Shown: in pieces, positions 40,811-62,745 of the stretch
How positions within the stretch are numbered: the first letter of the stretch is position 1
How the letters are laid out: every line of letters starts with the position of its first letter
Source of the DNA: Lentisphaeria bacterium
GTDB lineage: Bacteria; Verrucomicrobiota; Lentisphaeria; Oligosphaerales; Oligosphaeraceae
Length of the DNA stretch: 64,000 nt
Reading direction: 5' to 3'
Assembly: GCA_050949415.1 (NCBI GenBank)
Contig: JBMNFR010000015.1
Span: forward strand, 549,093-613,092
Translations under genes and position numbers: made by a program
The notes under the pieces: generated by a model
What the model was told of the DNA's origin: nothing
Seen by the model: only the letters and a program-made list of their open reading frames with translations
The model's database searches: none

Positions 40811-40823
40811 TGTCCCAGTTACC

Positions 40824-43721: not shown

Positions 43722-43870
43722 AATCCTCTTGGGTTGAGGAGGAGTCCAGGAACACCGTCAGGACACAAAAAAACGGAGGCAGCCGAAATTCGCCAGTGTA
43801 CTGGCGGCATTCCTGGCTACCTCCTTCTACGGTCGGTAGGTCAGTGATTACCGGTTGGGTTGTGGTCGGA

Positions 43871-46037: not shown

Positions 46038-46377
46038 CCCGCCGCTGCCGGGAATCGTAGCGGGGAAAGCATCAGGACACAATGGGCCGCCAGGCAACAG
46101 GTGGATAGCGACTTTACAACGCGTTGTAAAATTGCCCTTCCAGCTGTAATGACCGTCACCAACCGGACCGACGCACGCATATAGGAGGCAAGGTATCGGC
46201 GTCGACCTACGTAATTGGTAGGCAAGCTGACACTACTTGGGCCATTCGGCCTTGCCGGCCTGTCACGGGTCGCATAAACTGAGCCAGTAGAGGGTCGCAT
46301 CCAAACTGAGCCACCTGCAAACAGGAACATGCCATATATTACCTTTTTTGCCACTTGAAGAACAAAGGAGGTAGCAA

Positions 46378-48018
46378 ATGGCTAACATCAAGCAGGTGAA
46401 CGTGATAGAACGAATACAACAGCTCTGCCGGCAGGGTGCCAGCCAACGCCGGATAGCCCGTGAACTGGGCGTCAGCCGCAACACCGTGGCCCGTTATGCG
46501 GGCAAAACACCCGGGGCCCCGGTCGGGGGTGGCTCAGTTTCAGACCATGCGACCCACGGGGCGCCGGCTGGCCCGGACGGGCAAAATGAGCCACAAGCGA
46601 CCCACGGGGTGGCTCAGTTTGAAAATCATCCTTTCGTGCCTGATGCGACCCACGGGTCTGAAACGCCGACCGGTGCCGTCCCGCCGGCGCCGGAAGCTGA
46701 CGCCCGGTCGCTTTGCGCCCCCCATGCCGACTTCATCCGGCAAGAGCTGGCCATGGGACTTTCCGGCCGTCGCATCTTCCAGGACTTACAGGATGATTTC
46801 GCCTTTTCCGGCAGCTACGCCAGTGTGAAAAGATACCTTCGCCACCTTGGCCGGACCGCTCCCCCTGTTCCCTTCCGCCGCCTGCGCAAGGAACCGGGCC
46901 TGGAGATGCAGGTCGATTACGGTACTGGAGCGCCTGTCTATGACGACCGCGGGCGCCTACGCAAGACCTGGCTTCTGTGCTGCACTCTCAGCTACAGCCG
47001 CCGAATCTATTGCGAGGTCCATTATCGCCAGGATACCCAGAGCTTCATCCGCGGCATTGAAAACGCCTTCATCTATTTTGGCGGGGTCCCCGCCACCCTT
47101 GTCATCGACAACCTCAAGGCCGGCGTCACCAAGGCCGACCTGTACGATCCCGTCCTGAACCCCATGCTGGCATCCTTCGCCCGTCACTACGACACGTGCG
47201 TGCTTCCCTGCCGCCCGGGGATGCCGCGGCACAAGGGGAGGGTCGAGAACACGGTCGGGTATGTCCAGGACAATGCTCTCAAGGGCCGCCGGTTCGATGC
47301 GATCAACGAACAGAACGGGTTCCTCTGGAAATGGCAGGGGAACGTGTCGGACCACCGCTTTCACGGCACCGAGAAACGCCACGTCATCGACATGTACGCC
47401 GAGGAGAAGCCATACCTGCAGCCCCTGCCGCCGATGATCTTCCCCTGCTTCAGCGAATCCCGGAGGAAGGTCCACAGCGATGGCCATGTCGAAGTCATGG
47501 GCGCCTATTATTCAGTTCCGCCCGAATACACGGGACGCGAGGTCTGGGTCAGATACGACGGCCGAGTCGTCACCATCCTGAACGACGGCCAGGAAGAGCT
47601 GTGCATCCACACCGTCACGCCCAAAGGGAAGACGTCCACGCTCCGCGGGCACGTTCCGGCCGAGAAGACCTGGGGGCCTGAGCAGGGCGGCAGCTGGCTG
47701 TCCAGCCGCATCGGAGCGGAAATCGGGGAAGGCGCCAAGGCATGGGCGGAGGAAATGGCACGGACGCGGAAGGCGGCGGCGCCCAAGGTGATGTTCGGGC
47801 TGCTGGCCCTGCTCAAGAAACATTCCCGAAGCAGCATTGAGTTCGTCTGCAACATGGCGCTGGAAACACGAGCCGACAGCCTGCAGGACATCAAGGCGCT
47901 CCTGGAGCATAACCGGGACGGCAGGCAGGGAGAGCTCCACTTCGACGCCCGCGGCGAGGACATCAGGGAACTCGACTACTATGAAACGCAGGCAAAGACC
48001 AGGGAGGCCTTCGCATGA
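46378..48018 (+). CDS. istA: IS21-family transposase IstA
   Basis: N-terminal HTH RRIARELGVSRNTVARY. DDE core QVDYGTG ... SYSRRIY ... FGGVP..LVIDNLKAGV. Contains an unusual in-frame roughly 60-aa insert (ATHG..AQF x3) encoded by copies of the IS terminal-repeat motif. Confidence 0.85.
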   Translation: MANIKQVNVIERIQQLCRQGASQRRIARELGVSRNTVARYAGKTPGAPVGGGSVSDHATHGAPAGPDGQNEPQATHGVAQFENHPFVPDATHGSETPTGAVPPAPEADARSLCAPHADFIRQELAMGLSGRRIFQDLQDDFAFSGSYASVKRYLRHLGRTAPPVPFRRLRKEPGLEMQVDYGTGAPVYDDRGRLRKTWLLCCTLSYSRRIYCEVHYRQDTQSFIRGIENAFIYFGGVPATLVIDNLKAGVTKADLYDPVLNPMLASFARHYDTCVLPCRPGMPRHKGRVENTVGYVQDNALKGRRFDAINEQNGFLWKWQGNVSDHRFHGTEKRHVIDMYAEEKPYLQPLPPMIFPCFSESRRKVHSDGHVEVMGAYYSVPPEYTGREVWVRYDGRVVTILNDGQEELCIHTVTPKGKTSTLRGHVPAEKTWGPEQGGSWLSSRIGAEIGEGAKAWAEEMARTRKAAAPKVMFGLLALLKKHSRSSIEFVCNMALETRADSLQDIKALLEHNRDGRQGELHFDARGEDIRELDYYETQAKTREAFA

Positions 48019-48767
48019 GCATCGATAACATCCGTACGCAGCTGAAGCAGCTCAGGCTGTCCGGAGCCTCAACGGCCCTGGATCTGCGCCTGCAGGAAGC
48101 AAGAGCCAACTGCCTGGACCATGCCCAGTTCCTTGAAATACTCATGCAGGACGAGCTGCTCAACCGGTCGAACAACAAGATGAAAGCCGCCCTCCGGCTG
48201 GCCGGCTTCAGGGGCTTGAAGCCGCTTTCCGACTTCGACTGGCAGTTCAACCCGAACCTGGACCGGAGGGCCTTCTACGAACTCGCCGGGGGCGATTTTG
48301 TGCGCAAGGGAACCAACGTCCTGTTCGTCGGGCCTTCCGGGACGGGCAAGACCTGCCTGGCGCAGGCTATCGGCTACGAGGGGCTGAAACTCGGCTTCTC
48401 GGTCATCTACCGGTCAATCTTCGACGTGGTCGGCAGTCTGCAGCGGTTCAACGCGCTCAGTGACCGGAATGCGGAGTTCGACCGGTACCTCAAGGCAGAC
48501 CTGCTGCTCATCGACGACATGGGGCTTAAGCAGCTGCCGGAAAAGTCAGGGGAGCTGCTCTTCGAGATCATCTTCCGCCGGCACGGGCTCAAATCCACGC
48601 TGATGACCAGCAACCGGCCGCTGGAAGAGTGGGGAAAGCTCATCCGCGACGTGCCGACGGCGGGGGCGATCCTGGACCGCTTCCTGGAGCAGTCGCTGGT
48701 CATCCGGTTCAAGGGACGAAGCTACCGGCTGGCAGGGACACCCGAGCCGGCCGCCACCGAGCACTAG
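48015..48767 (+). CDS. istB: IS21-family helper ATPase IstB
   Basis: Walker A GPSGTGKT, Walker B LLLIDDMG, and a 4-nt overlap with istA. Confidence 0.9.
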   Translation: MSIDNIRTQLKQLRLSGASTALDLRLQEARANCLDHAQFLEILMQDELLNRSNNKMKAALRLAGFRGLKPLSDFDWQFNPNLDRRAFYELAGGDFVRKGTNVLFVGPSGTGKTCLAQAIGYEGLKLGFSVIYRSIFDVVGSLQRFNALSDRNAEFDRYLKADLLLIDDMGLKQLPEKSGELLFEIIFRRHGLKSTLMTSNRPLEEWGKLIRDVPTAGAILDRFLEQSLVIRFKGRSYRLAGTPEPAATEH

Positions 48768-49441
48768 CCGTCGCTGCCCGTCTCCGTCTCCGACGAGATG
48801 GTGTCCCATTCTCGACGGAGACGGACGGCGACGGCAGAAAGGCAGGCCATGCGACCCACGGGGCGAAGTGGCTCAGTTTGCGAATCGCAATCTTGTCCTG
48901 TTTTGTCAATAACGGCCGTCAAACTGAGCCACAAGCGACCCACGGGGCGGCTCAGTTTGACAAAAAAACAACGATACGTCGAAAGGAGGTTGGAAACAGA
49001 ACCAAACACAGGCATGCAACTATTTTACCAACGATGAGTTATGACTTTGGTTGTTGTAAAAATATAACCAGGCATTAACTTAGGGAAGTGGCTCATTTTG
49101 ATGCGACCCACAGGTGGCTCATTTTGATGCGACCCGTGACAATATTGCACAAGAGCTGCTGGAACGGAAGGCAATCCCCCAGCAGGAACTGCGAAGCTAT
49201 TTACCGCCGTCTTGACCAACAGTACAACATGGTTGAACGGCCACCCAAATCTGACATGGTCTGCCGGATGATTGCCAACCAATTCGGGTGGAATGTACCG
49301 GACAAGCAAGCGTTGGGCTGGGACTTCAAGCCGCTGCTAGATGACTATACCACACCAGTGCGGATTAGGCTGGTGCAGATGGCGAAAAAGTGTCAGCTCA
49401 ATTTTCAATCCAGCCTCAAAATGAAAGGAGTATAAACGCAA

Positions 49442-50110
49442 ATGAAAGTACTTTTGATCGAAGACAACAGCCAGTGCGCTGATTTCATTATCCAGGGATT
49501 GCAACAGTCGGGTTTTCAGGTGCTCCACAGTTCGGATGGTCTGGATGGCCTGTTCAAAGCCCGTACTGAGCCGTTTGATATTGCGGTTATCGACATCATG
49601 CTACCGAAACTCGACGGACTGGCGGTCATCGAGGAAATCCGGCGGGCCAAAATCAAGACTCCAATCATCGTACTCAGCGCCCGGGATTCTGTTGAAAGCA
49701 AAGTCAAGGGGCTGGAAACCGGCGCGGATGACTACTTGGCCAAGCCGTTTTCCTTCTCCGAACTGCAGGCGCGGATCTATGCCCTGCTGCGTCGGGCAGG
49801 CGGTGAGAGTGAGCTGTCGGTGCTGCGCCTGGAAGACCTCGAGCTTGACCTTTTCGGACACCGCGTCACACGGGGAGGGAAAAAACTGGACCTAGCTCCC
49901 CTGGAATTCAAATTGCTGGAATATCTGCTGCGGAACAAAGGAAGAATAGTCTCCAAAACCACCATTTTGGAACATGTCTGGGAATACGGTTTCGACCCCC
50001 AAACCAACGTGGTCGAGGCACAGGTATGCCGCCTCAGGGAAAAACTGGACAAGGATTTTGAACGAAAATTGCTCAAAACGGTACGGGGATTCGGATATGT
50101 CCTGGAATAA
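49442..50110 (+). CDS. OmpR/PhoB-family response regulator
   Basis: Receiver domain (DIAVIDIMLPKLDG) plus a winged-helix output domain (LEFKLLEYL...GFGYVL). Confidence 0.9.
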   Translation: MKVLLIEDNSQCADFIIQGLQQSGFQVLHSSDGLDGLFKARTEPFDIAVIDIMLPKLDGLAVIEEIRRAKIKTPIIVLSARDSVESKVKGLETGADDYLAKPFSFSELQARIYALLRRAGGESELSVLRLEDLELDLFGHRVTRGGKKLDLAPLEFKLLEYLLRNKGRIVSKTTILEHVWEYGFDPQTNVVEAQVCRLREKLDKDFERKLLKTVRGFGYVLE

Positions 50111-51785
50111 AATGGCTACCTTATTCAATACGGTTCGGGCAAAAATGTGCGTCATCAATGTTGCCCTTATCCTGGTGGCATTTCTCCTTAGCCTCACCGG
50201 AATCTATTTTTTTCAGCGAAATTATTTTCTGGATGAAATGAAAGAAAAAATCACGATTTTCAGCAATGAGTTCGAATACGAATATCTGACGGGTGACGAG
50301 GAGATACCAGGTGCAGTGGTCATTCAGACTCAGACGGTCAGCATCCCTGATTTTGCGGCAACCGCCATACAGCGGAACAGCCCGGATGCGACTGTTGTTT
50401 TCGCCTGCCACAGCTTAAGTCAAACAGGTGAGGATGCCATCACGGCCATTGCCAATATCGGTGGGATGCTTTTCGAGTTCATGATCACCCCCAGCCGCAT
50501 CGAAAAACGTGAGCTTACTGCGAGTTTGCCGGAGCGGATCGCCAGCATGCATGAAGAATTCACTGAGGAGTCCTATGGCGAAGACGACCAGCAGTTATTT
50601 TTTCTTTTGCTATCATCCGAAGGAAGGATTCTGGCTCATTCCAGACAGGATCCCGACGATCTGCGTTTTCTGACCAAACCGGTTCGTCCTCAGACTGACA
50701 AAACTTGGTTGATACGTCACCACCATGGGGAGCATTCGGTTATGGCTCTCTACAAGCGTTTCTATGACGGCAACCTTCTGGTGATCGCCGGCAGTCTGGA
50801 GAAAGCGGAACGCAACCTGGCGTACCTGGCGAGTATTTTAGGCATCATCATGGCTTTCATGATGGTGATCAGCCTTGCCGGCAGCTTGTTGCTGTCCGGC
50901 ATGTTTTTGAAAGGTCTTAACCGAGTCAAAAAAACAGCGGCGCAAATTGCGGACGGAGACTTTAGCCAAAGGGTAGAAATGGGTCGTGAGGGACGGGAGA
51001 TCAACGACCTGGTAGCCGTTTTCAATGACATGGTCGACCAAACCGAAAAACTGTTGCGGGAACTCAAAACCGTTTCCGACGATATTGCCCATGACCTTCG
51101 GACACCATTAACTGCCTTGCGAGGGAGAGCCGAACTTGCCTTGACCAGTGGCGATTGCTCAAATCTTCCCATCCAGGTGCTGGAGGGCTGTGATCATCTT
51201 CTATCCATCATTAACACCACATTAATCATCTCCCAAACCGAGGCAGGCCTTTTCCCTACCAGTCAAGAAGAGTTGGACCTGTTGGAAGTGGCACAGCAAA
51301 CGATCGACATTTTTCTGCCAACGGCAGAGGCACAGGGCATCACCCTTAAATTCTCTTCCGATCAAAAAAAGAGTTTTTTGAAAGCCAACCGAACGGCCAT
51401 GCAGCGGATGCTCGGCAATCTGGTTGACAACGCCATCAAGTTCACCCCGCCCGGAGGCCGGGTGGAAATCCGCATAACGGAAGAGACCGGAAGACTGTCT
51501 TTGATAGTGTCTGATACAGGAAGCGGAATTCAACCGCAGGACAAAGAAAAAATCTTTAAACGTTTTTACCGTGGCGACGGCAGCCGTTCCACACCCGGCA
51601 ACGGTCTTGGCCTGAGTCTGGTCAGGGCCATTGTCATCGCCTATGGAGGTACCATTGAGGTGGAGAGCACCCCGGGAAATGGAACCACTTTCCGAATTGA
51701 CTTTCCTATCGCATCGCCGACAACCGGACAACCACCAGCCCACCACGAAAGGCCGGCAACGCCTGGAACGCATCGCGTTTCCTAA
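50097..51785 (+). CDS. Sensor histidine kinase (two TM segments, HAMP, HisKA, HATPase_c)
   Basis: H-box HDLRTPLTAL, N-box LVDNAIKFT, G-boxes DTGSGI and GLGLSLV. The start could be 50097 (overlapping the response-regulator stop) or 50112. Confidence 0.85.
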   Translation: MSWNKMATLFNTVRAKMCVINVALILVAFLLSLTGIYFFQRNYFLDEMKEKITIFSNEFEYEYLTGDEEIPGAVVIQTQTVSIPDFAATAIQRNSPDATVVFACHSLSQTGEDAITAIANIGGMLFEFMITPSRIEKRELTASLPERIASMHEEFTEESYGEDDQQLFFLLLSSEGRILAHSRQDPDDLRFLTKPVRPQTDKTWLIRHHHGEHSVMALYKRFYDGNLLVIAGSLEKAERNLAYLASILGIIMAFMMVISLAGSLLLSGMFLKGLNRVKKTAAQIADGDFSQRVEMGREGREINDLVAVFNDMVDQTEKLLRELKTVSDDIAHDLRTPLTALRGRAELALTSGDCSNLPIQVLEGCDHLLSIINTTLIISQTEAGLFPTSQEELDLLEVAQQTIDIFLPTAEAQGITLKFSSDQKKSFLKANRTAMQRMLGNLVDNAIKFTPPGGRVEIRITEETGRLSLIVSDTGSGIQPQDKEKIFKRFYRGDGSRSTPGNGLGLSLVRAIVIAYGGTIEVESTPGNGTTFRIDFPIASPTTGQPPAHHERPATPGTHRVS

Positions 51786-51809
51786 GCCTTCCAAGGCGCT
51801 CCGGCAATA

Positions 51810-52571
51810 TCATCGGTTGGTGTCCAGGCGGAAGAAGATGGCCAGCAGCCCCGCCACCAGCCATGCCAGCAACATCGTGACGATGGTGTGCGAGAGATAA
51901 TGGTTGCCGGCCAGCATTTGGTAAGTACCCATCAGTGAGCCGGCGGCTAAGGCAATCATCAGGCCACGCCGACGTCCTGACCGGCTCAAAGGGGCAAAAG
52001 CCAAGCCGAACAAAGCATAGCCCCCGGAGGCGTGTCCGGCTGGCCAGCCCTTATAGCGTTTTTCCCCGACATGACGTGGTATTGACTGCCAGACGGTCCG
52101 ATAGGGAATGCTGCCACCGCCGTACCGGTCAATCTTGCGTGGATAGGCCACGCCAGTATGGGCTTTGAGGATGGCTACCAGAGAAGGAATCAGGGCCAGG
52201 CAAAGCAATACGTAAACGAGGCGGAGCCGGTTCCAGGGGCAGGTTAGCCGGCCCCAGCGCTGGCTGATGGTGAGCAGAAGCAGCGAACCGGCAAAAAATC
52301 CCAGCAGAAACTTGGGGATCACGTAGAAAGTAAGCCCCAAAGGGCTGTGTTTATCGAATTTAACCAGCCACTGCTGTGAGTCCCAGTCATACAGACAGTC
52401 CTGCACCCATAGATCAAAGGGTATCCATTCCCCCGCCACCAAAACCAGCAGCAGAAGCCCGAGGGGCAGAACGACGCGGGAGTACAGAGCTCCGTTCCAA
52501 GGTGTCAGTCTATGCGATTTTTTGTTTTCGGTCAGGTTATCAGCCCTACATGGATGCTCCCTCGCTGGCAT
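51810..52571 (-). CDS. PAP2-superfamily lipid phosphatase (LpxE/PgpB-like)
   Basis: Polytopic membrane protein. Motifs KAHTGVAYPRK (KxxxxxxRP-like), GWPAGHASG (PSGH-like), and SHT.V (SRxxxxxHxxxD-like, degenerate). Confidence 0.55.
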   Translation of the reverse strand: MPAREHPCRADNLTENKKSHRLTPWNGALYSRVVLPLGLLLLVLVAGEWIPFDLWVQDCLYDWDSQQWLVKFDKHSPLGLTFYVIPKFLLGFFAGSLLLLTISQRWGRLTCPWNRLRLVYVLLCLALIPSLVAILKAHTGVAYPRKIDRYGGGSIPYRTVWQSIPRHVGEKRYKGWPAGHASGGYALFGLAFAPLSRSGRRRGLMIALAAGSLMGTYQMLAGNHYLSHTIVTMLLAWLVAGLLAIFFRLDTNR

Positions 52572-52591
52572 GCTCTATCCTTCATTTTTTC

Positions 52592-53221
<630 letters not shown>

Positions 53222-53361
53222 GATTTTTTCTTTTTTCGGTGGGTGAAAAGATCGTATCAATTTGGTCAGCACGGATTAAATGCGTTATGTATTCACATCG
53301 GGAACCTCCTTTCAGCAGTTGAATATTAAAAACACCAGCTCCGCAGCAAAATTCCTTTCTG

Positions 53362-54801
53362 TCAACGGGAAACAAGCAGTTGCCAGATAGCCAATACCCA
53401 GGCGATTCCATTTATGGCAAGGCACAAGCCGACCGCTGCGCTGCCCAGATCTTTGGCCTTTTTGGCCAGGGGATTATATTCAGGCGATACCAAGTCTACG
53501 ACCGCCTCCACGGCAGTGTTCAGAATTTCAATAACCAAAACACCTGCCCAGAGCAGGCAAAGAATCAGTGCCTGCCATACGGGAAACGGAAACAACCATG
53601 CTGCGGGAACAAGCAGACAGCCCGCCAGTAATTCATGACGAAACGCTGTCTCTCCAACCACAGCTTTCAGACCACTGCCGGTATAGCATGTGGCGTGCCA
53701 AAGATGGCTGATCCCCGTTTTTTTGCCGGAATGAAGCAATACAGGTTGTAATTCATCGGGATTAATGGGGCTTGGGCAAAAGCCTGTTCGAGCTATCCGG
53801 GCAGTTGCAATGTTTTTCTGGTTCAACAGTATACTCCCGATAACAATCAAGGCAAGACCTGCCCAAAAAATGCTCGATTTATTGCCCAAAACCGTGCTGG
53901 CAAAAAATTCCAACCGTTCCCGTCCGGTCTCGGCAGTGACATCCACTTGTTTGACTTGGATGGTGCCATCCGCTTTGAAGTCGAACATCGCATAGCCAAA
54001 CATGCGGTTGTCGGGGTCCCGGATAACTTGTCCACTGGAAGGCAGATGGATCAGCCGGATGCCGGCGAAGATGCCTTCCATATACTGATGGATATGCCCA
54101 GAGATAATCAGATCGATCTTATATCCGGAGATAATTTTCCGAAAGGCTTCTGCTTCCTCCGCCGGCAGGCAATGGGAAGCTTTCGGGCGCAGATCCACTG
54201 GCGGGATATGGCAGAGGATGACGCAACGCCGATAACGTTCCCTTTGGCTGGAAAGGGTTTGTTTGAGAAACATGCGCTGATCTTCCGGCAGTTTTCCTTC
54301 TGCTGTGTTCAAGGCGATAAACAGGGTATCTCCATAGCTCCAGTAATAAAAATCCTGACCGAAAAACCGGTGCCAGGTTTCCAGGGAACTCAGAAGTCCT
54401 AGATCATGGTTCCCTGGAATGGCCCAGAAGGGACACTTCATTTCCTCGCGTAATTCTGAAACCACATGACCGTATTCGGCTTCCCGGGCGAACTTCATCA
54501 TGTCACCGGTACAAATTGTAAAATCCGCTTTGCTGCCGATGGAGCGAATCACCGCTTCCATCGAGTCGACCTTGGCGCCAAAGTCGCCGAAAGCCGCCAT
54601 CCGGAAATTTGTTGCCGCTGGATGCAACTCGAGCCCGGCAGGCGGGAGAAATGGCGGCAGATTGGTCAAAAACACCGTCCGTGCGGTGTAACAAGCCAGG
54701 CACATGCCAATTCCGGTTATAAGCAGCATCACACCCGCGATGCGGCGCAACAGCCGGTGTCGCGCATAGCGACATTCTATCCTGGTTTCTGATTCTTTCA
54801 C
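53362..54801 (-). CDS. Fusion protein: calcineurin-like metallophosphoesterase + transmembrane linker + diacylglycerol kinase (DgkA, prokaryotic DAGK family)
   Basis: Phosphoesterase motifs GDFG, GDMM, GNHD, GHIH. The C-terminus IEILNTAVEAVVDLVSPEYNPLAKKAKDLGSAAV closely matches E. coli DgkA EILNSAIEAVVDRIGSEYHELSGRAKDMGSAAV. Confidence 0.7.
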   Translation of the reverse strand: MKESETRIECRYARHRLLRRIAGVMLLITGIGMCLACYTARTVFLTNLPPFLPPAGLELHPAATNFRMAAFGDFGAKVDSMEAVIRSIGSKADFTICTGDMMKFAREAEYGHVVSELREEMKCPFWAIPGNHDLGLLSSLETWHRFFGQDFYYWSYGDTLFIALNTAEGKLPEDQRMFLKQTLSSQRERYRRCVILCHIPPVDLRPKASHCLPAEEAEAFRKIISGYKIDLIISGHIHQYMEGIFAGIRLIHLPSSGQVIRDPDNRMFGYAMFDFKADGTIQVKQVDVTAETGRERLEFFASTVLGNKSSIFWAGLALIVIGSILLNQKNIATARIARTGFCPSPINPDELQPVLLHSGKKTGISHLWHATCYTGSGLKAVVGETAFRHELLAGCLLVPAAWLFPFPVWQALILCLLWAGVLVIEILNTAVEAVVDLVSPEYNPLAKKAKDLGSAAVGLCLAINGIAWVLAIWQLLVSR

Positions 54802-56939
54802 TGGTTTTCCTTTTGCTTTAGAGGTAAAACCATCACCTTTGTTAGATTTGGGAAACGCATAGCCGGGTGAAGCCGGTCAAGACCCAGCTGATGTCGCAGG
54901 GACGCGCTCTGGTAGAGAGCAATGCAATCGGCGGGATCGTTTTGGGTTTCGGCTTCCAGCAGTGAAAATGGTGCCGTCAACGCCCATTTTTCATAAGAGA
55001 GTTTTCGTACCGGCTCAAGTAAAGTCAGAGTACCCGTTTCCGCCACCAGAAGACCGAGAGTCTGGAATGTGCCCAGCGGCGCCCTGCCTTCTTCAGCCGG
55101 CAGATTAAGCACGTCGCGACCAAAGAACTGGCTTTCGTAGGACCATCCCAGCAGGCCGAAAATAGTGGGAGCCACATCAATCTGACTGCAGACGGTGTCG
55201 ACGCTCTGGACGGGGAGCCGCCCCGGGGCGTAAAAGAGCAGCGGTATGTGGTATTTGTCCAATGGAAGTTTTTGGCGTCCGGAGGTGCTGTGGCAGTGAT
55301 CCGCGACAATCACAAACAGAGTATTGGCAAACCAGTCCCTGCCCGCGGCGGCATCGATAAAAGCTCCCAGGGCATGATCGCTGTACCGAACTGCCGAGGA
55401 ACGGCTTTTTTGCGGAGCATCAATCGTCCCCTCCGGGAAAGTGTAGGGACGATGATTCGAGGTGGTCATGATCAACTGATGAAAAGGACGCCCCACCGCA
55501 TGGTCGGCATCTGCGGCCCGAAGCGCCCATTGGAACATGTCGCCGTCGCAGACACCCCAGGCAGTGGAGAAATTCTGTGGCGTGGCATCCGGCGAGGACC
55601 TGTCCAGAATGTTATAGCCATTGGCTGAGTAGAAGGCGTTCATGTTGTCGAAACGCCCGTAGCCGCCATAGACAAAGGTGGTGGTGTAGCCCCGTTCGTG
55701 AAACAGCCTGCCAAGGGAAAACAAGTCACCATTGTCCGGCCGGCGGAGCATGGACTGCCCCGGCGTGGGGGGTATGGAGAGGGTTACTGCTTCAAGGCCG
55801 CGTACCGTGCGAGTGCCGGTGGCAAAACACCGGGTCAACAGCAGCCCTTCGCCGGCGAGGCGGTCGAGATTGGGCGTGCGAGTCTTTCCACCCAGGCATC
55901 CGACGAAGCTGGCGCTGAGACTTTCTTCAACAATGACCACCACATTCCACCTTTTTTCCGGCCCTGGATTGATGATGTTGCGGCGGATGTCCAGCGGTTC
56001 GTCGCTGGTGAAGGCGGCATTGGGTTCGGCTAGATGGCGGCGAAGACGCGGGCCGATTTCCGCCAAAGGCACTTTGAGGTAGAACCGATTATAGTCCAAT
56101 TCGTTCTGATAGTAGGCGGCAAACAGGGAGTGAATGCCGTTGCCGGCCAGTTCCACGTTGCAGGGGTTGCCGTTTTGGGGGATGGCGGTCTGATTGTTGA
56201 AGGTGAACGCAAGAATGACGACGGCGACGATATGGACGGCGGCGGCTGACCAGCGTGTCTTCCACCCGGTTAAAGAATTCAGCCAGGGCGTCAGCAAGCC
56301 GTCACGATGCATCCTCCACGCCAGAATGGCGGCAGTGGCGAAAATAACGGCCAGTAACCAGAGAACGGGGTACGACTCCCAAATGTTGGTCAGGACTTCC
56401 GTGGTATAGATCAGATAATCAATGGCAATGAAATTGAAGCGGGTGGCAAATTCGCCCCAGAACACGCATTCGGCAAGCAGCAGAAAGAGTAGCGTGGAAA
56501 GGGCAAGGAGGATGATTCCCGACATCGCCCGGCGATGCCCGCGGTACGTAAACAGCCGTTGCGGAATCACCGTCAGCCATAAAGTCAGCGGCAATGTTGC
56601 ATAGACCGACACCACTAGGTCGTTGAGCAGTCCATAAAACAAAATCCCGGCCCCGCCGAGTCCACCGAATTCAGCCTCATTCCTTCCCATAACCATCAGG
56701 ATCAACCGGGTCATGGTGAAAAAACAGAGGCCGAGTGCGGCCAGAATGACGGTTCCGCCCAAGCGATGTCCGGTGAGAATACTCCAAAGTTGCCGGAAGC
56801 ATCCTTTGCAGCACAGTGCTTGTTTCCCGGGTGGTGAACATGTTCGCTCACTGCGTATCGGAGTGGAAATGAGATTCTGATCATTACCAGCACATAGGTA
56901 GCCGATGATAAGCAGTTTTATGATTTTCGAACAAGTCAT
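54798..56939 (-). CDS. Sulfatase-family (alkaline-phosphatase superfamily) membrane transferase, LTA-synthase / phosphoglycerol-transferase-like
   Basis: N-terminal polytopic domain followed by a sulfatase-fold domain (VVVIVEESLSASF ... TSNHRPY). Confidence 0.65.
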   Translation of the reverse strand: MTCSKIIKLLIIGYLCAGNDQNLISTPIRSERTCSPPGKQALCCKGCFRQLWSILTGHRLGGTVILAALGLCFFTMTRLILMVMGRNEAEFGGLGGAGILFYGLLNDLVVSVYATLPLTLWLTVIPQRLFTYRGHRRAMSGIILLALSTLLFLLLAECVFWGEFATRFNFIAIDYLIYTTEVLTNIWESYPVLWLLAVIFATAAILAWRMHRDGLLTPWLNSLTGWKTRWSAAAVHIVAVVILAFTFNNQTAIPQNGNPCNVELAGNGIHSLFAAYYQNELDYNRFYLKVPLAEIGPRLRRHLAEPNAAFTSDEPLDIRRNIINPGPEKRWNVVVIVEESLSASFVGCLGGKTRTPNLDRLAGEGLLLTRCFATGTRTVRGLEAVTLSIPPTPGQSMLRRPDNGDLFSLGRLFHERGYTTTFVYGGYGRFDNMNAFYSANGYNILDRSSPDATPQNFSTAWGVCDGDMFQWALRAADADHAVGRPFHQLIMTTSNHRPYTFPEGTIDAPQKSRSSAVRYSDHALGAFIDAAAGRDWFANTLFVIVADHCHSTSGRQKLPLDKYHIPLLFYAPGRLPVQSVDTVCSQIDVAPTIFGLLGWSYESQFFGRDVLNLPAEEGRAPLGTFQTLGLLVAETGTLTLLEPVRKLSYEKWALTAPFSLLEAETQNDPADCIALYQSASLRHQLGLDRLHPAMRFPNLTKVMVLPLKQKENQ

Positions 56940-56985
56940 ATGAGGTTTCTCCCTGGAAAATGCGTTTTTTTCCTGTTTCTGATTT

Positions 56986-58881
56986 TCAGTTTTTCATGAA
57001 TCGGAACATATCGTGTTGAACCTTTTGCAATTCGCTGGCGTTGACACGATAAAAATCATCCTGATTACTGCAGGGCTCATCCTGCAACGTGGTGATCTTA
57101 CGGCTGAAGTATCTCCCTTTGGTTCCCAGAGGCAGCACCATCTTGTGGGTTGTGCTGATAAACGCTGCCGTCTCCCAACCGCAAACGACCATGTGGGAAC
57201 GGTGATATTCCGGCGAGAACAGATTGCCCCCCACCGAGTAGTCCTCCGGTGGATTGACGACTCCAAGCAAAGGTGCCAGCGAAGGAACTATGTCGGTATG
57301 GTGACTCATGCCCTCGTATACCGATGGAGTAACTCCTGGCCCCCGAATGACCAGCGGAACCCGTATCTGCTCCTGCACAAATGTCGAATTGTGTCCAAGA
57401 AAACCCTTTTCATAAAATTCCTCTCCATGGTCGCCGGTGATCACAACAATGGTGTTTTCCAGCAGTTCAGGTGTGTTTTCCAGCGCTGTGAAAAGGCGCG
57501 CCAACTGGTTGTCAATATGGTGCGCCGCGTTGACATCCCGGTTGTACAGCCGTTTGGCGTCTTGAGCTGAAACGGTGGCATAATTAATGTTTTCCAAATA
57601 ATCCTGCGTCATTGCCTGCTCCGGCGGAAAGGTATAGGGCGCGTGCGTCGACTCAAAAAAACCAAACAGGAAAAAAGGCCTGTTTTTATCTCTGGAATCC
57701 AGAAAAGCAACAGCACGGTCAATCAGACGGATATCCCGCTCCCAGGCTTTTCCGTTGCTTTCTTCATGTAAGGCAGATTCTGGCAGGGCGGCAAAAATAG
57801 TCCGGTCAAATTCTGGATAGGTGAAACGGGCTGACGTCATGCATAAAAACTGGTAATTGTCTTCGACGAGCCAGTCAATCAGCAACGGACCACGCTGACT
57901 GTGAAGAAATTTTCCCCAGCAATTTCCGTACAGCCCATAGAACATACTGAACATGCCCGGACGCGTGCCGTGCCCCCCACTGTAGTGTTGTGCGAACCGA
58001 CATCCTTTTCGGGAAAACTCCCAGGTTGATGGCATAATTTCAGGCGAAAGCAGATCCGCCCGCAGAGATTCGCCTACCAACCAAATCACATTGGGACGGC
58101 TTCGCCTCGGTAAACGGTCTATCGGCAGAAGCGGATAACTAACCCGAATCAGGCTGCCGTCTTTCTGCGTAAAGCGGGGAAGGTCAGTCCGTTTCGGCTC
58201 TTTCATCCCAATCTTGCGCAGAAAACGGCGCATGCGCATGGTCGGCGCGTGGGGGAACGCATCGATGGTGCACAATACGTCTTGGTTGAGCAGGAAATCA
58301 GCCATACCAGTACACAGCAATGAAAGCAGCAGTGCGGCTCCTGTCCACAGAGGAAAGGACCATCGCATGGTCTTGACCGGTAAATGCGATGCCAAGCGGG
58401 TGCAGAATTCCGATTTCAAGCAAAAAAACATCAAGCAGTAATGAAACACCAGCAACAGTCCAAGTCCGACTCCGGCGGTAAGCAGAGTATTGGCTTCCAG
58501 CCCCATGGATTCAAAGCCGCCAGGCGTCGTCAGCAGATTGACTACCAGCCCATTGATATGATAACCGAATTTGACGAGCATGACAGCATCGGCAAGGAGA
58601 AAAAAATGTACCAGAAAACCCAGCAGCACGGCCAGACTTCTGCCGGCCCAGGTAATCCACGAAGTGTTTTTGCCCGGTTTGCCGCTGCTGCCGATGGTAG
58701 CCGCCAGAAAAGCCGGTATCAGGACAATGCCAGTGTAGGCCAGCCAGGTAGAGGTAAGATATAATAACCGGAAAAGTCCGGTTCCCCCGTCATTGTGCCA
58801 GGCAAACCAGCCGGTCAAGGGCAAGGTTGCCAAATACAACAAAAGACAATAGGTATAAAAGGCCGTACGTTGTTCCTTCAT
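56986..58881 (-). CDS. Sulfatase-family inner-membrane protein (YejM/PbgA- or phosphoethanolamine-transferase-like)
   Basis: N-terminal multi-TM domain, then a sulfatase fold (NVIWLVGESLRAD ... ITGDHGEEF). Confidence 0.6.
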   Translation of the reverse strand: MKEQRTAFYTYCLLLYLATLPLTGWFAWHNDGGTGLFRLLYLTSTWLAYTGIVLIPAFLAATIGSSGKPGKNTSWITWAGRSLAVLLGFLVHFFLLADAVMLVKFGYHINGLVVNLLTTPGGFESMGLEANTLLTAGVGLGLLLVFHYCLMFFCLKSEFCTRLASHLPVKTMRWSFPLWTGAALLLSLLCTGMADFLLNQDVLCTIDAFPHAPTMRMRRFLRKIGMKEPKRTDLPRFTQKDGSLIRVSYPLLPIDRLPRRSRPNVIWLVGESLRADLLSPEIMPSTWEFSRKGCRFAQHYSGGHGTRPGMFSMFYGLYGNCWGKFLHSQRGPLLIDWLVEDNYQFLCMTSARFTYPEFDRTIFAALPESALHEESNGKAWERDIRLIDRAVAFLDSRDKNRPFFLFGFFESTHAPYTFPPEQAMTQDYLENINYATVSAQDAKRLYNRDVNAAHHIDNQLARLFTALENTPELLENTIVVITGDHGEEFYEKGFLGHNSTFVQEQIRVPLVIRGPGVTPSVYEGMSHHTDIVPSLAPLLGVVNPPEDYSVGGNLFSPEYHRSHMVVCGWETAAFISTTHKMVLPLGTKGRYFSRKITTLQDEPCSNQDDFYRVNASELQKVQHDMFRFMKN

Positions 58882-59529
58882 CGTGTTCTTCCTTTCCGCG
58901 TGGATTTGAAATTCATATCAGTTTTGATATGGTCAATACTATCGCGCAGGGAGTTCACGAAGGGATTGCCTTATCATTAACAACTTGTAATGTTGGTTAC
59001 GCGCGGATTATATTCGTGGACTATAACATTAATCCTAAAGCCTACAGGTTTTGATATTTTTTGGCGCTTCCGTAAATTTCGTGGGTCGCTGCCTAAACAA
59101 GACCGGCACGAAGTGCATATGAAGTATCACTCGACACGACAAGAAGTTATGCATAGGGTGCGGCCCGGCGAGAATGGGACACATTCTCGTCGGAGCCGGG
59201 CCGCACCCTGTGTGTAACTTCTTATTGGCGCCACTAATTTATCGTTGACTACCAAGGAGATATGGCTTTTACACCTAACGATTAGTCGGGAAGGTCGCGG
59301 ATAGCCTGTTTGCTTTTGTCATGTTTTGTCGAATTTTATACATGACTTGTCATGGCTTTCCACCCACGAAAATTCCCGAAGAGCCTATTTTTTTCACAGC
59401 CGTCCCATAGCCACTGAAATGTAAGCGTCCATTCAGGGCATTGAACCGACGGCATCTCTTCCATTGCAGCACTCTCAAGACGGCAACAAGCCATCCAAGG
59501 CGCAATCAGCGCCTTGGATGGCTTATGCC

Positions 59530-60960
59530 TCAAATTCTGCCTCTTCTGGGGTTTGCGAAAAAACGGGGTTATTTTAGGGTGGCTTTGAGCATTTGCTTGG
59601 TTAACGTCATTGACGGCAAATCATAAATTTTCAGTTTCATGTACTTATAGTCACGATATCCATAGGCCTGGGATATCAGATGTCGGATTTTGTTGTTGAA
59701 GCCCTCGGTGGCGGCATTAGTTAGCCGGTCGAACTGCCAATAGGCACAGATACCGTCCAGATGCTGTGCCACCGTCCTTCCCATGGTCTTGAGCTCAGGG
59801 ATGTTCATTCGCTGGCAGATGCCGGCCCAATCGGTCAGCATCCGTCGAGCCTCGTCGGCATCGTCGGCCAGCTGGTAGATTTTGACCAGGCACTCCTTAA
59901 GCGTCCAGGCATCGTAGAGGTCTTTGGAGACCTGCTGCAGGGCTTCAATCGACAGTTTCTCGTCATCGGTGAGGTCGTCGCTGTTATGCAACAGTGCCCA
60001 CCGCTTGCCCTTCAGCTGCTTGGTGGCTTCCTGGTCCAACTCTGACTGGACTTTTCGGCGGACCTTGTCCAGCTTCTGGTTCATCAGCTGGATGACATGA
60101 AAGTGATCGTAAACTACCGTCGCGTTAGGAAGCTGCTCTCTCACCCATTTGGCATAGGCGTTGCTCATGTCCATGCACACGGCCTCAACGTCGGCTTTGA
60201 AGTGGTTAAGCCGGGCCTTGAAGGGGGCCAGCGCCTCGCTACCCTTGCCGTCGCCGACAAACAGCACGGCTCCATTGAGCATGTTACGGACCACCGTCAG
60301 GTACTTTTGCCGGCGCTTGCCTTCAACCCGTTCATGGCCAACGTGAATCTCATCTATCCCGATGATCCTGATCCCCTTCATGTGGATGTGACTGTATTCC
60401 TTTTCCAGCCAGCTCACTTCCACATTTTTGACGGCCTCCCAGTCCAAATCGAAATGGGCAGCGATGGCGCTGATGGTCATCGTGTCCCGCAATTCCAGGA
60501 TCGAACGGGCCATGGCGCGGGTCATGCGAGCCTTGGGGTGGGGGAGGAAATCCGGATTTTCGTAGGACATGGCCTGGCACTTCCGGCAATAAAGACGATG
60601 AACCAACATCTTTAAGTAAAGTCTTTTGCTGCCAATGTTTTGTCTTTGAATCACACGTTCGCGGACAGGATAAGCCTTGACCTCGGCTGATCCACACTCC
60701 GGGCAGCGGAATTCTTTGCATTCGATTTTCTCGTAGCAGGCGCCACCCTTGTATTCCATGGCGATGTGCTTGCAACTTCTGATCCCTTGAGTATGGTAAA
60801 GAACACTGGTCATCATCCGGAAAGCCTCCTTGGTTATGGGTTGGAAATGAACACATAACATAAGGCTGATGATGACCAGCTTCAACTGCTCGTTGCGCCG
60901 GTAAAGTCATGATTGGCTTTGCAAGGGAAATGAAACATTTCCCTTGCAAAGCCGGTCATG
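59530..60960 (-). mobile_element. ISL3-family insertion sequence (boundaries approximate)
   Basis: Single ISL3 transposase gene. Flanking ggctttgcaagggaaatg-type sequences appear at both ends, with a perfect 40-bp palindrome at 60916-60955 and a hairpin at 59490-59522. The exact inverted repeats are not resolved. Confidence 0.45.
59569..60816 (-). CDS. ISL3-family transposase
   Basis: Start MMTSVLYHTQGI with an AAGGAGG ribosome-binding site. N-terminal zinc finger CKEFRCPECG...CRKC and an ISL3 DDE domain. Confidence 0.85.
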   Translation of the reverse strand: MMTSVLYHTQGIRSCKHIAMEYKGGACYEKIECKEFRCPECGSAEVKAYPVRERVIQRQNIGSKRLYLKMLVHRLYCRKCQAMSYENPDFLPHPKARMTRAMARSILELRDTMTISAIAAHFDLDWEAVKNVEVSWLEKEYSHIHMKGIRIIGIDEIHVGHERVEGKRRQKYLTVVRNMLNGAVLFVGDGKGSEALAPFKARLNHFKADVEAVCMDMSNAYAKWVREQLPNATVVYDHFHVIQLMNQKLDKVRRKVQSELDQEATKQLKGKRWALLHNSDDLTDDEKLSIEALQQVSKDLYDAWTLKECLVKIYQLADDADEARRMLTDWAGICQRMNIPELKTMGRTVAQHLDGICAYWQFDRLTNAATEGFNNKIRHLISQAYGYRDYKYMKLKIYDLPSMTLTKQMLKATLK

Positions 60961-61563
60961 ACGAGGTTGCACTTTGGAAAGGACCGGAGGCAAGGGCGTT
61001 CACGTATAAATGGGGGGGACCCGCGTCAGCGGGGAGGAACCCGTTTATGCCGTGAACGCCCTTGCCGGAGGGCATTTCCAAAGTACGGCAGAGGTCGACT
61101 GCGGTTTTCCTGAAGGTCTTGTTCCCCTCTCGGAAAAGTGAAACATTATTCTTTTCCCAAACCCCAGAAGAACCGAACAACGCACGACCAATACGATCAA
61201 GGCCGACACCTCCGACGCAACTCAGTTCATGTGCATAATAGCTTGCATGATAGTCTGTAATCATTCTAATAGGTCTATTGTTGTAATCAGCCATGGGGTC
61301 TATTCTTCGCTGGGTGCCGTCAACTGGACTTGAATATCCCACCGTGTCTCCAAGCATCTCGGACAGCGATAGGCAAGAAGCCAAAAAGTTTTGCCCGGGC
61401 ATCATAGCAGATAGGTGTGTTTCAGAACTTAATTCAGCAAGGATAAAAATCAAATCAACGCGTAAATAGTCCTGCAACTTTTAGGGCACAGGATTTTGCT
61501 TTTCCCTGCACCGTTACACAATATTGGAAACATCAGAGAGCATCAGCCTGATTGACACAACAG

Positions 61564-61944
61564 CTACACGTCAATAAATCGGTAAATGCCATCATGGTTT
61601 GACATATCCATCCCCCCCGGCAGTTTCTTCATGACGTACACCATTGCCGTCACCACGCTCCCGTCAGCCAGCGTTGCGGGCACGGTTTCGCGCACATAGA
61701 GCCTCGGATAGCCTTCCAGGACATCGATCCTGGCCAGCGTCTCCGGGGTTAATTCGAGCAGTTCTGCGGTCACGTCGCGGCCGTCATCGTCCGGCACAAA
61801 GGCCGGATAGCCCCAGCCAGTGTCGTAGAGCGCGCCCTGGATCGTACAGGGCACCCTACTCCTGGCATCGGCGCCCCAGTGCTCATTGCGCTCTCCCTTC
61901 ATCAGCGTGCCGTAAACCGCAAGGCGAATCAGCTTCTCACTCAT
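61564..61944 (-). CDS. Gamma-glutamyl cyclotransferase-fold protein (AIG2/GGACT family)
   Basis: N-terminal YGTLMKG motif and a downstream LEGYP..Y.R catalytic-Glu region. Confidence 0.6.
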   Translation of the reverse strand: MSEKLIRLAVYGTLMKGERNEHWGADARSRVPCTIQGALYDTGWGYPAFVPDDDGRDVTAELLELTPETLARIDVLEGYPRLYVRETVPATLADGSVVTAMVYVMKKLPGGMDMSNHDGIYRFIDV

Positions 61945-62381
61945 TACCCGATCCTCCTTGCGGCAGATGTCCCAAAGGCATCAGGCAACCCGTGCTGCCG
62001 GACTCCAGCCGAGCAGATGCGCCGGTAGTCCTCCGGATAGGATATGCCATCACGCTGGCGCCGCGCCTCGGGCGTCATCACATAGGTAAACACCCGGTAG
62101 AACCTTTGACCGCACTGGACGCAAAAAGTGTCCCTGGTATAAATTCCTTTGGCGACACCCTCACACCGGTCCAGCCGATGCCGATCCTCATCGCTGATGC
62201 GCCACAGCACGCCGTAAACGGCGTTTCCCGGCGCTTCCTCGATGTCCGCGTACAGACGCTCCACCAGACGGTAATCGCGCAGAACTGCCGTACTGAACAG
62301 TCTTGCGCCAGGACAGCGAGCCAGCATCCTGGCGCCATAGCAGTTGCTTGCGTAGCTCAAATATAAGCTGTCCATACGCAT
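61944..62381 (-). CDS. Gamma-glutamyl cyclotransferase-fold protein (GGCT-like), second paralog
   Basis: N-terminal YLSYASNC (compare YGSN in GGCT). AVYGVLWRI ... DRCEGV..YTR. Its start overlaps the downstream gene's stop. Confidence 0.5.
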   Translation of the reverse strand: MRMDSLYLSYASNCYGARMLARCPGARLFSTAVLRDYRLVERLYADIEEAPGNAVYGVLWRISDEDRHRLDRCEGVAKGIYTRDTFCVQCGQRFYRVFTYVMTPEARRQRDGISYPEDYRRICSAGVRQHGLPDAFGTSAARRIG

Positions 62382-62692
62382 TAATCCTCCTTCTTGTCCG
62401 GTTTTTCTTTGTTATCACCATTTCCCTCCGGTTCAAAGGCAGCGTAACCGGCTGCCACCAGCTGCGACAGGAAAGCTTCTGCGGCCTCGTCGGGTTCGTC
62501 GGACAATTCTATCTGACCGGTTCCGATGCTGGCCAGGATTCTCCGCATATAGGCCACGGGGCTGGTTTCCAGGGTAAACGGGTTGATCATCATACCCTCC
62601 ACCACTTCCAGGAAGGTACTGCCGGCAAAATAGTCGCCGGTGCAGCTGACCGGCCTTCCATCTGGGCTGGTACTATGGATTCTGACTTTCAT
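62381..62692 (-). CDS. small acidic hypothetical protein (possible substrate/carrier of the adjacent amidoligase)
   Basis: Start MKVRIH with an AAGGAGA ribosome-binding site. 104 aa with a strongly acidic C-terminus (EPEGNGDNKEKPDKKED). Its stop overlaps the next gene's start. Confidence 0.4.
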   Translation of the reverse strand: MKVRIHSTSPDGRPVSCTGDYFAGSTFLEVVEGMMINPFTLETSPVAYMRRILASIGTGQIELSDEPDEAAEAFLSQLVAAGYAAFEPEGNGDNKEKPDKKED

Positions 62693-62745
62693 ATTGTCTC
62701 CTTTTCTTTGCGGTGCGGAGGGGTTTCCTCCGCACCTGGCTGTTC

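Follow-up and report, generated by a model that had tools for sequence, protein, structure and literature searches.

In the modules that come closest to the locus described here, PmrAB-eptA, RstAB-dgkA-eptA, mcr-1-hpap2 and mcr-3-dgkA, the recurring components are an OmpR-type two-component system (TCS), a phosphotransferase of the alkaline phosphatase (AP) superfamily, DgkA for the recycling of diacylglycerol, and a PAP2 phosphatase. In Vibrio, dgkA-eptA is under the control of RstAB (PMC12064563), and hpap2 and dgkA are known to accompany mcr genes (PMC7559476). In a stretch of 64,000 nucleotides of contig JBMNFR010000015.1 from a Lentisphaeria bacterium, which is called the window in the following, a response regulator (RR) and a sensor histidine kinase (HK) of the OmpR type stand beside a five-gene operon that has the same kind of components: AP-superfamily phosphotransferases, a DgkA domain and a PAP2 protein of the unusual hpap2 subfamily. 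The locus differs from the known modules in that two other AP-superfamily architectures, here termed Sulf631 and Sulf713, take the place of EptA/MCR, and in that a phosphoesterase fused to DgkA, a PepSY-like protein with a poly-Asp tail and a CusR/CopR-like regulator are added. We think, with a probability of roughly 0.6, that an Oligosphaera-like Lentisphaerota bacterium has in this locus a self-contained cassette for envelope remodelling that is induced by a signal. This reading draws on the observed gene content, on the conservation of catalytic residues, on synteny and on a conserved promoter box. A regulated envelope-lipid module had already been seen here in a preliminary description of this DNA, and that idea is upheld by the AP-superfamily transferases, DgkA, a PAP2 protein with 43% identity to hpap2 and the overall mcr/eptA-pap2-dgkA logic, but its attribution to PmrAB/PhoPQ-type control and to EptA-type enzymes is not.

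Domains were assigned by Pfam and NCBIfam scans of the open reading frames (ORFs) of the window, with NCBIfam matches reported at E <= 0.01. The seven ORFs that had been proposed were found again at the coordinates listed in Table 1, with each domain call backed by Pfam or NCBIfam and that of the PepSY-like protein by its fold, and the ORF map confirms that the TCS converges, tail-to-tail, on a contiguous minus-strand run of five genes, with 24 nt between the stop codons. Because of this convergence the operon promoter is located at about 58.9 kb, 9 kb away from the RR gene. From Sulf631 to the PAP2 gene the intergenic distances are 46, -4 (an overlap), about 140 and 20 nt, and the 4-nt overlap between the fusion gene's start and the Sulf713 stop suggests translational coupling. 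The longest ORF of the HK gene begins at 49974, the start given in Table 1 being the one called in the nearly identical locus L001 (GCA_040768065.1), and the longest ORF of the PepSY-like gene extends to 53272. An Rfam search over 48700-61300 found no riboswitch or small RNA, with hairpins scored as microRNA noise only, and a simple promoter and terminator scan of the region did not exceed the shuffled expectation and delivered no usable internal promoter or terminator.

Table 1. Features of the cassette and its surroundings (positions in the window).
Feature	Coordinates	Strand	Basis or remark
tRNA-Ala	40290-40366		
Large serine recombinase	41197-42483	-	
DUF2924 gene	42483-42935	-	
Sigma-70-like protein gene	43095-43721	-	
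WYL/WCX regulator	44922-46037	+	
IS21-family element (istA, istB), on the TCS side	46261-49141	+	Pfam rve/Mu-transpos_C_2, IstB_IS21
RR, OmpR family (receiver and winged helix)	49442-50110	+	Pfam Response_reg and Trans_reg_C
HK (HAMP-HisKA-HATPase)	50097-51785	+	Pfam
PAP2 phosphatase, last gene of the operon	51810-52571	-	PF01569
Secreted tandem PepSY-like (BLIP-like) protein with C-terminal poly-Asp tail	52592-53221	-	Fold; PF11396 sub-threshold
Metallophos-DgkA fusion	53362-54801	-	Pfam Metallophos and DAGK_prokar
Sulf713, 713 aa, LtaS/OpgB-type AP-superfamily phosphotransferase	54798-56939	-	PF00884
Sulf631, 631 aa, DUF3413 and Sulfatase, first gene of the operon	56986-58881	-	PF11893 and PF00884
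Candidate RR-binding site CATTACAAGTTGTTAATG	58975-58992	-	CusR/HprR-type inverted repeat, 18 bp
ISL3-family element, bordering the promoter, reading towards the operon	59542-61171	-	DDE_Tnp_ISL3, NF033550
Two GGACT/AIG2-like genes	61564-62381	-	
Amidoligase_2 gene	62746-63738	-	

The cassette order with convergent HK and RR genes was found in at least seven further Lentisphaerota loci of public assemblies (L007, L008/L014, L012, L013, L017, L018 and L019), at 64-100% amino acid identity. The identities amount to 64-68% in L007, 75-80% in L008/L014, 85-90% in L013 and 74-88% in L017, which is the cultured Oligosphaera ethanolica DSM 24202, where the cassette is found at about 3.60-3.61 Mb of NZ_JAUSVL010000001.1; the RR is 87-95% identical among the orthologous cassettes, and the PepSY gene is missing from the cassette of L007. 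The flanks were compared for L007, L008 and L017, and in these three loci they are unrelated and do not contain insertion sequences. As the same order recurs at such identities with unrelated flanks, the arrangement is not a product of chance.

The TCS had been described as PmrAB/PhoPQ-like, but the comparison with subfamily models points elsewhere. The RR matches TIGR01387 (CopR/CusR/SilR-CzcR) best, with 249 bits at a cut-off of 279, followed by HprR and CusR (211 bits each), PhoB (187), PmrA (170) and PhoP (148), and the best NCBIfam match of the HK is the heavy-metal sensor kinase model TIGR01386 (220 bits, cut-off 292.55). Judged by these scores, CusRS, CopRS and HprRS appear to be the closest relatives of the pair, not its orthologues. 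The locus shares with these systems the best-scoring RR and HK subfamilies and an 18-bp palindrome upstream of the target operon. It differs from them in scores that stay below the subfamily cut-offs, in a target operon that encodes lipid enzymes instead of efflux, oxidase or Msr functions, and in a TCS that runs towards its target operon instead of away from it, and for which no autoregulatory box was found.

The palindrome was found by aligning the DNA 5' of Sulf631 from four loci, where it sits in a conserved block, and it reads CATTACAAGTTGTTAATG in the window and in L001, the latter sequence being the window's own, CATTACAGACTTTTAATG in L008, CATTACAGAATGGTAATG in O. ethanolica (L017) and CATGACGATGTTGTAATA in L007. 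The pattern CATTAC-N6-KTAATG has a single exact match in the 64-kb window, and in L008, L017 and L007 the box occupies the same position, with the pattern occurring within each locus only at the Sulf631 promoter. A match with two mismatches at 49073-49090 was rejected as being at chance level. The CusR/HprR box of E. coli is CATTACAAAATTGTAATG (PMC9302797; PMC8249747). Compared with it, the box of the window agrees at 14 of 18 positions and that of O. ethanolica at 16 of 18, with both half-sites exact, so that half-site sequence and spacing are common to both types. A conserved -10-like element (TAGTAT/TAATAT, 58936-58941) follows about 42 nt downstream of the centre of the box, which puts the box near -54 from the likely start site, a normal position for an activator of the OmpR family. 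A regulator site had been proposed for 58882-59500, and a candidate could indeed be located in silico in this region. We consider this conserved box to be the best available evidence for a control of the operon by the TCS, which is very probable, with binding by the RR as a prediction from it.

The HK consists of a first transmembrane (TM) helix, a periplasmic domain of about 205 residues, a second TM helix and the HAMP-HisKA-HATPase part. In the alignment of orthologs, the periplasmic domain has the conserved acidic patches FSNEFEYEYLTGDEE and EEF(N/T)EESYGE; a His-rich run in this sensor domain is not conserved, whereas the acidic ExxE-like patches are.

Of the two transferases, Sulf631 has a five-TM N-terminal domain that matches PF11893 (DUF3413) with 40.9 bits (cut-off 27.1), and it reaches 142 bits with the YejM model NF038282 (cut-off 825) and 96 bits with YejM structures. 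For PbgA, a D-x9-H dyad has been described, and the protein is devoid of the catalytic residues of the AP superfamily (PMC7018646). Sulf631 shares with YejM/PbgA/LapC the DUF3413 five-TM domain, the dyad (D98-x9-H108, conserved across 117 family members) and a periplasmic AP-superfamily domain, but it differs in that Sulf631 and its 116 relatives keep the set E, T, H, D-H and H: E271, T306, H413, D484, H485 and H497 are invariant across the 117 members, and at the DH position E. coli YejM has AGRG and Sulf631 GDHG. By these comparisons, Sulf631 is a protein of YejM/PbgA architecture with intact catalytic residues and not a YejM orthologue. Lentisphaerota have many members of the family (614 matches at E <= 1e-10), including several paralogues. 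One such paralogue in O. ethanolica is 50% identical, and its neighbourhood was uninformative on inspection; a literature search for DUF3413 beyond PbgA returned nothing relevant.

Sulf713 (PF00884, 136 bits) has five TM helices within residues 64-248. Its best NCBIfam matches, phosphoglycerol transferase I and LtaS, are weak, with 58 bits (cut-off 572) and 45 bits (cut-off 970) against the LtaS/OpgB models. The periplasmic domain has its closest solved structure in PDB 3LXQ, the uncharacterized VP1736 of V. parahaemolyticus (233 bits), for which a literature search again found nothing relevant, and reaches 40-50 bits with LtaS/LtaP structures. The motifs EES (E338), GT376R (T376) and ADH549 (D548-H549) are present. 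Sulf713 therefore resembles LtaS/OpgB (MdoB) and 3LXQ in its five N-terminal TM helices and its extracytoplasmic E...T...DH set, but its similarity to the characterized members is weak (45-58 bits), and we regard it as a protein of LtaS/OpgB-like architecture, as far as the profiles tell, that does not attain equivalog-level similarity. Neither transferase matches EptA_N (PF08019) or the MCR/EptA models of NCBIfam at E <= 0.01, and a regex search for the formylglycine motif C/S-x-P-x-R found none in either catalytic domain, with Thr standing at the nucleophile position. The assignment to EptA/LtaS/YejM-type transferases in the preliminary description thus stands for the YejM architecture of Sulf631 and the LtaS/OpgB-like architecture of Sulf713 and falls for EptA; the HMM assignment that it had suggested gave DUF3413 for Sulf631, LtaS weakly for Sulf713 and no match to EptA_N. 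Its remark that the formylglycine motif is not evident agrees with our search and with the conserved Thr nucleophile and metal ligands. Both proteins are best read as probable phosphotransferases or hydrolases with the LtaS/EptA mechanism that belong to neither characterized family.

The fusion of a phosphoesterase to DgkA is rare, with 22 matches among 5.8 billion proteins in a word-indexed search. Its DgkA domain is unambiguous: PF01219 scores 94 bits (cut-off 22.3), residues 360-474 align to 12-127 of E. coli DgkA (3ZE3) and hence nearly over its full length, and the motifs EILNTAVEAVVD and AKDLGSAAV are kept. Two TM helices (21-39 and 309-327) flank the phosphoesterase domain, and both the N-terminus and the linker following the second helix are rich in Arg and Lys. 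As the N-terminus of DgkA is cytoplasmic (N-in topology, 3ZE3), these features together would place the phosphoesterase domain in the periplasm, a topology by which a PlcP-type phospholipase C was disfavoured as its identity. The closest PDB entries to the profile of the phosphoesterase family are 2DXL/3D03 (E 3e-7), structures of the glycerophosphodiesterase GpdQ; a phmmer search of the domain against PDB sequences returned nothing, and GpdQ was reached by the profile search only. The likeness to GpdQ-type (class III) enzymes consists of this best profile match and of the metal-ligand motifs II-V, which are invariant. Unlike GpdQ, the domain is anchored by TM helices on both sides, has a predicted periplasmic location and is joined to DgkA by fusion or adjacency, and the usual His of its motif I is missing. 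An AlphaFold2 model of the fusion, computed from an alignment of 11 sequences, was too poor (pLDDT 54) and was not used for a fold search. In L008 (10001-11461), phosphoesterase and DgkA lie in the same frame and are split by one in-frame stop, so that the fusion can be gained or lost through one codon change; stop-codon read-through or a sequencing error are possible alternative explanations of this split.

The phosphoesterase also occurs in another setting. In the gut Lentisphaeria loci L020 (4300-9720) and L021 (7450-16750), a 46% identical phosphoesterase lies between genes of the PMT/PMT_2 type (ArnT-like GT-C), in the order PMT, phosphoesterase, PMT, RR, HK, acidic lipoprotein, PMT, with an RR that is 63-65% identical to the one of the cassette, and in L027 and L029 the phosphoesterase is likewise paired with PMT genes. 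Three promoters of this gut variant share the motif ATGAACAAAnTnTAAT...GTCA (ATGAACAAAnTnTAATyTTyCrGTCA), which is unlike the CusR-type box and suggests a small regulon. From these arrangements, the phosphoesterase and this type of TCS appear to be a stable core that is joined either to AP-superfamily or to ArnT-like transferases. Since the core goes with either transferase type, the phosphoesterase would act on a common acceptor and not on a by-product of the donor, and its target is plausibly a phosphate of lipid A or of the core. Distant homologues of the phosphoesterase (below 40% identity, in Smithella, Alphaproteobacteria and other Victivallales) showed no consistent gene context.

The PAP2 protein matches PF01569 with 50 bits, the PAP2_lipid_A model NF028538 with 136 bits (cut-off 275) and the PAP2_near_MCR1 model NF028536 with 96 bits (cut-off 475), and over its catalytic half it has the 43% identity to the mcr-1-linked hpap2, which is found on about 950 plasmids. 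Both share the motifs LKAxT..(C/Y)P, PA(G/A)HASG and G(D/N)H(F/Y)LSHT, which are invariant in seven cassette orthologs, and we assign the protein on this basis to the subfamily linked to eptA/mcr-1. A phmmer search against PDB sequences returned nothing. The best relative on a plasmid is encoded on NZ_CP011027.1 of Pseudoalteromonas arctica (L092, 73839-77443), where a CusA/CzcA RND pump is followed by eptA, a CDF transporter, PAP2 and dgkA, with an IS66 element adjoining. The gene order of L092 independently shows lipid A-type genes placed within heavy-metal efflux genes, which echoes the CusR/CopR-type regulator of the cassette. The plasmid itself is mobilisable and thus carries lipid A modification genes within a metal-efflux cluster.

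Small periplasmic PepSY proteins can bind and tune histidine kinases, as described for DbfQ-DbfRS, a system that is activated by defects of lipopolysaccharide (LPS) and by polymyxin B; dbfQRS-like modules are widespread and include BqsPQRS (PMC12714742). Metal-binding PepSY proteins are also on record, namely lanpepsy (PMC9988556) and UipA. The PepSY-like protein of the cassette has a signal peptide and reaches 22.5 bits with PF11396, below the cut-off of 28.3. The core of its AlphaFold2 model (pLDDT >90) matches the fold of the Bacteroides PepSY-like/DUF2874 structures 3U1W, 4K61 and 4FR9, and the top match is annotated as calcium-binding. Its tail consists of 33 almost pure Asp residues in the window and of about 8-33 residues across the orthologs, and it is kept in all orthologs found. 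The coding sequence of the tail is an imperfect repeat of the trinucleotides GAT/GAC (52592-52700), inside which several metagenome contigs end, and a slipped-strand variation of its length is plausible. An exhaustive profile search of 50%-identity clusters collected 952 representatives of the wider family at E <= 1e-3, with one to three tandem modules, and a poly-Asp/Glu tail is present in 85 of the best 149 relatives, a fraction that is inflated as the profile includes tail positions. Three of the five distant members with readable contigs are encoded immediately 5' of an OmpR-type RR or RR-HK pair; the other two are not. No literature on a PepSY protein with a poly-Asp or poly-acidic tail was found. 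Like DbfQ of V. cholerae and the BqsPQRS system of P. aeruginosa, the TCSs of which are tied to outer-membrane or cationic stress, the locus links a secreted PepSY-type protein genetically to an OmpR-type TCS. It differs in that the protein is a tandem PF11396-type module with a poly-Asp tail, and in that it is encoded inside the target operon and not upstream of the TCS. The protein had been counted among the lipid-remodelling activities; in view of the position of three of its five relatives upstream of an RR and of the DbfQ precedent, it is more likely a sensor partner in the manner of DbfQ, a cation buffer, or both, than a lipid enzyme.

From these observations the following course of events can be proposed. 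The HK would sense a periplasmic cue, most likely cationic or envelope stress exerted by metal cations or cationic peptides, as its sensor domain has the conserved acidic ExxE-like patches, and would phosphorylate the RR, which would bind the box near -54 and activate the five-gene operon. Sulf713 and Sulf631, each with Thr as nucleophile, would act at the periplasmic face of the inner membrane and take head groups, either glycerol-phosphate or phosphoethanolamine in type, off membrane phospholipids; the acceptor that receives them would be a component of the envelope, with lipid A or the LPS core as the most likely candidates, and diacylglycerol would be set free. On the cytoplasmic side, the DgkA domain would phosphorylate this diacylglycerol and so regain phosphatidic acid, and the GpdQ-like phosphoesterase and PAP2 may trim or expose phosphates, be it those of the acceptor or those of lipid carriers. 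The PepSY-like poly-Asp protein could partner the kinase, buffer cations, or both, and since its gene would be under control of the RR it would thereby close a feedback loop.

Other explanations have to be considered for the same genes. The one nearest to the original proposal is a control of the PmrAB/PhoPQ type over a phosphoethanolamine-type modification of lipid A that confers resistance to cationic peptides such as polymyxin. The mcr-1/eptA-linked subfamily of the PAP2 protein, the DgkA logic known from eptA-dgkA systems and the ExxE-like patches of the HK, which are reminiscent of PmrB, would all fit, but RR and HK score higher against the CopR/CusR/HprR group and the heavy-metal kinases, neither transferase has an EptA_N or MCR match, and the promoter box is a CusR/HprR-like inverted repeat, in contrast to the boxes of PmrA and PhoP, which are direct repeats; we thus regard this version as unlikely. 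About equally improbable is an acceptor that is not lipid A at all. It could be a periplasmic or surface glycan, such as a glucan resembling osmoregulated periplasmic glucans, a capsule or another glycolipid, which is decorated with glycerol-phosphate according to the MdoB/OpgB-DgkA logic and edited in its substituents by the phosphoesterase. The recycling of MdoB-derived diacylglycerol by DgkA is classical, Sulf713 has its best, though weak, NCBIfam matches in phosphoglycerol transferase I and LtaS, and the phosphoesterase is closest to a glycerophosphodiesterase. Against a glycan speak the PAP2 subfamily with its link to lipid A transferases, the ArnT-like GT-C genes that adjoin homologues of the phosphoesterase, and a gene content of the cassette that comprises no glucan synthesis genes.

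A bulk turnover of phospholipids in phosphate stress, with PlcP-like cleavage of head groups, interconversion by DgkA and PAP2 and scavenging of phosphate esters by the sulfatase-fold proteins, is much less probable. PlcP is indeed a metallophosphoesterase, the phospholipase C of lipid remodelling, and the fusion of a possible producer of diacylglycerol to diacylglycerol kinase would make sense in that situation; yet the TCS is not PhoBR-like (PhoB 187 bits versus 249 bits for the CopR subfamily), no glycolipid or betaine-lipid synthase is found in the cassette, the phosphoesterase is probably periplasmic, and the transferases have the multi-TM LtaS/YejM architecture and do not resemble secreted phosphatases. 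Sulfatases are abundant in Lentisphaerota, and both Sulf631 and Sulf713 contain the Pfam Sulfatase domain and weakly match models of arylsulfatase and choline-sulfatase, so that they might be genuine sulfatases that are clustered incidentally with the other genes. This is highly improbable, as C/S-x-P-x-R is not found in the catalytic domains and the Thr at the nucleophile position is invariant in the 117 relatives, as both proteins have five-TM N-terminal domains, and as they keep their place beside DgkA, PAP2 and the TCS in the orthologous loci.

Several points weigh against the signal-inducible envelope-remodelling cassette that we favour. Every NCBIfam equivalog or subfamily score falls under its curated cut-off, and for this reason no component of the cassette is an orthologue of a characterized enzyme. 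RR binding, co-transcription, topology, head-group donors, acceptor and signal are all predicted from the sequence, the assignment of the box to the RR draws solely on sequence similarity, and none of the loci examined has a CusR-like box in front of its RR gene. The gap of about 140 nt that precedes the PepSY gene could harbour an internal promoter, and transcription of the ISL3-family element towards the operon could alter the expression in this strain. At the level of the enzymes, motif I of the phosphoesterase has the missing His mentioned above, and the PAP2 protein does not have the canonical Arg and Asp of C3 (YQ....H...H versus SR.....H...D). The same holds for hpap2, the biochemical role of which is itself unclear (PMC7559476).

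If the favoured reading is right, it extends the TCS-driven phospho-modification of lipid A and envelope, with recycling of diacylglycerol, beyond Proteobacteria to Lentisphaerota and to different enzymes. Whether YejM/PbgA is an enzyme is a matter of debate, and the cassette would supply relatives of it that have kept their catalytic residues, besides a rare fusion that fixes the predicted topology of its phosphoesterase, and a concrete, testable pair of regulator and site. The cassette further points to a large, uncharacterized family of poly-acidic-tailed PepSY-like proteins adjoining TCSs, which fits the work on DbfQ, and its presence in O. ethanolica DSM 24202 makes experiments feasible. 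A more far-reaching and rather speculative idea, which we hold to be somewhat unlikely when its two parts are taken jointly, is that the PepSY-like proteins with poly-Asp/Glu tails are an undescribed, widespread family of cation-sensing co-receptors or buffers for OmpR-type TCSs, and that the operon makes an undescribed envelope modification. The acidic tail would then trap cationic peptides or metal cations, which would tune the kinase, and the modification would be made by active transferases of the DUF3413 and VP1736 types together with a DgkA-fused periplasmic phosphodiesterase, in which case the DUF3413 family would be ancestrally enzymatic.

The cassette is enclosed by two insertion sequences. 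The IS21-family element has its terminal inverted repeats at 46261-46278 and 49124-49141 and the ISL3-family element its 20-nt inverted repeats at 59542-59561 and 61152-61171, and no target-site duplication was found at either of them. From outer repeat to outer repeat, the window (46261-61171) is 99.83% identical to 3631-18540 of L001; the left flank is 97.4% identical, with an indel of about 500 bp at the junction, and the right flank is unrelated, which suggests an IS-mediated rearrangement or a recent transfer of the IS21-cassette-ISL3 block. Judged by its gene content, the surrounding region (40290-46260 and 61172-64000) has the appearance of an integrative island that adjoins tRNA-Ala; a search inside the window for att-like direct repeats matching the end of tRNA-Ala found none. 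The position of the cassette between insertion sequences in such an island bears on the movement of envelope-modification genes and of potential polymyxin- or metal-tolerance genes. The GC content of the cassette is 52% versus 57% for the window, and in L007, L008 and L017 it tracks that of the host. A search for the cassette DNA among known plasmids gave no match, and tblastn of the fusion protein against plasmids gave partial matches only, which covered at most 53% of it.

Near-identical pieces of the cassette, with copies at 99-100% identity, are present on short contigs that were binned to unrelated phyla, as Desulfoplanes (L012, JAQVZR010000115.1) and Proteiniphilum (P0023). The copy in L012 is a mosaic, in which RR, HK, PAP2 and PepSY are 100% identical at the amino acid level, the fusion 92% and Sulf713 83%. 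Misbinning, chimeric assembly, recombination between cassette variants or a mobile block are possible explanations for the copies in these bins.

Between the end of the IS21-family element and the RR gene lies an ORF of 68 aa (49229-49435, plus strand) that public assemblies annotate as a gene; it has no Pfam match, the longer frame of 115 aa having been scanned, and it is not visibly conserved 5' of the RR gene in L007, L008 and L017. On the other side, two long perfect or near-perfect hairpins (59488-59524 and 59146-59226) are located between the end of the ISL3-family element and the operon promoter and could insulate the promoter from transposase read-through; in Rfam, the one at 59488-59524 scored as miRNA-like noise only. 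Elsewhere in the window, at 37871-39723, the products of two adjacent genes combine DUF1559 with a methylation motif of the prepilin type at the N-terminus, which is typical of PVC genomes and fits Lentisphaerota.

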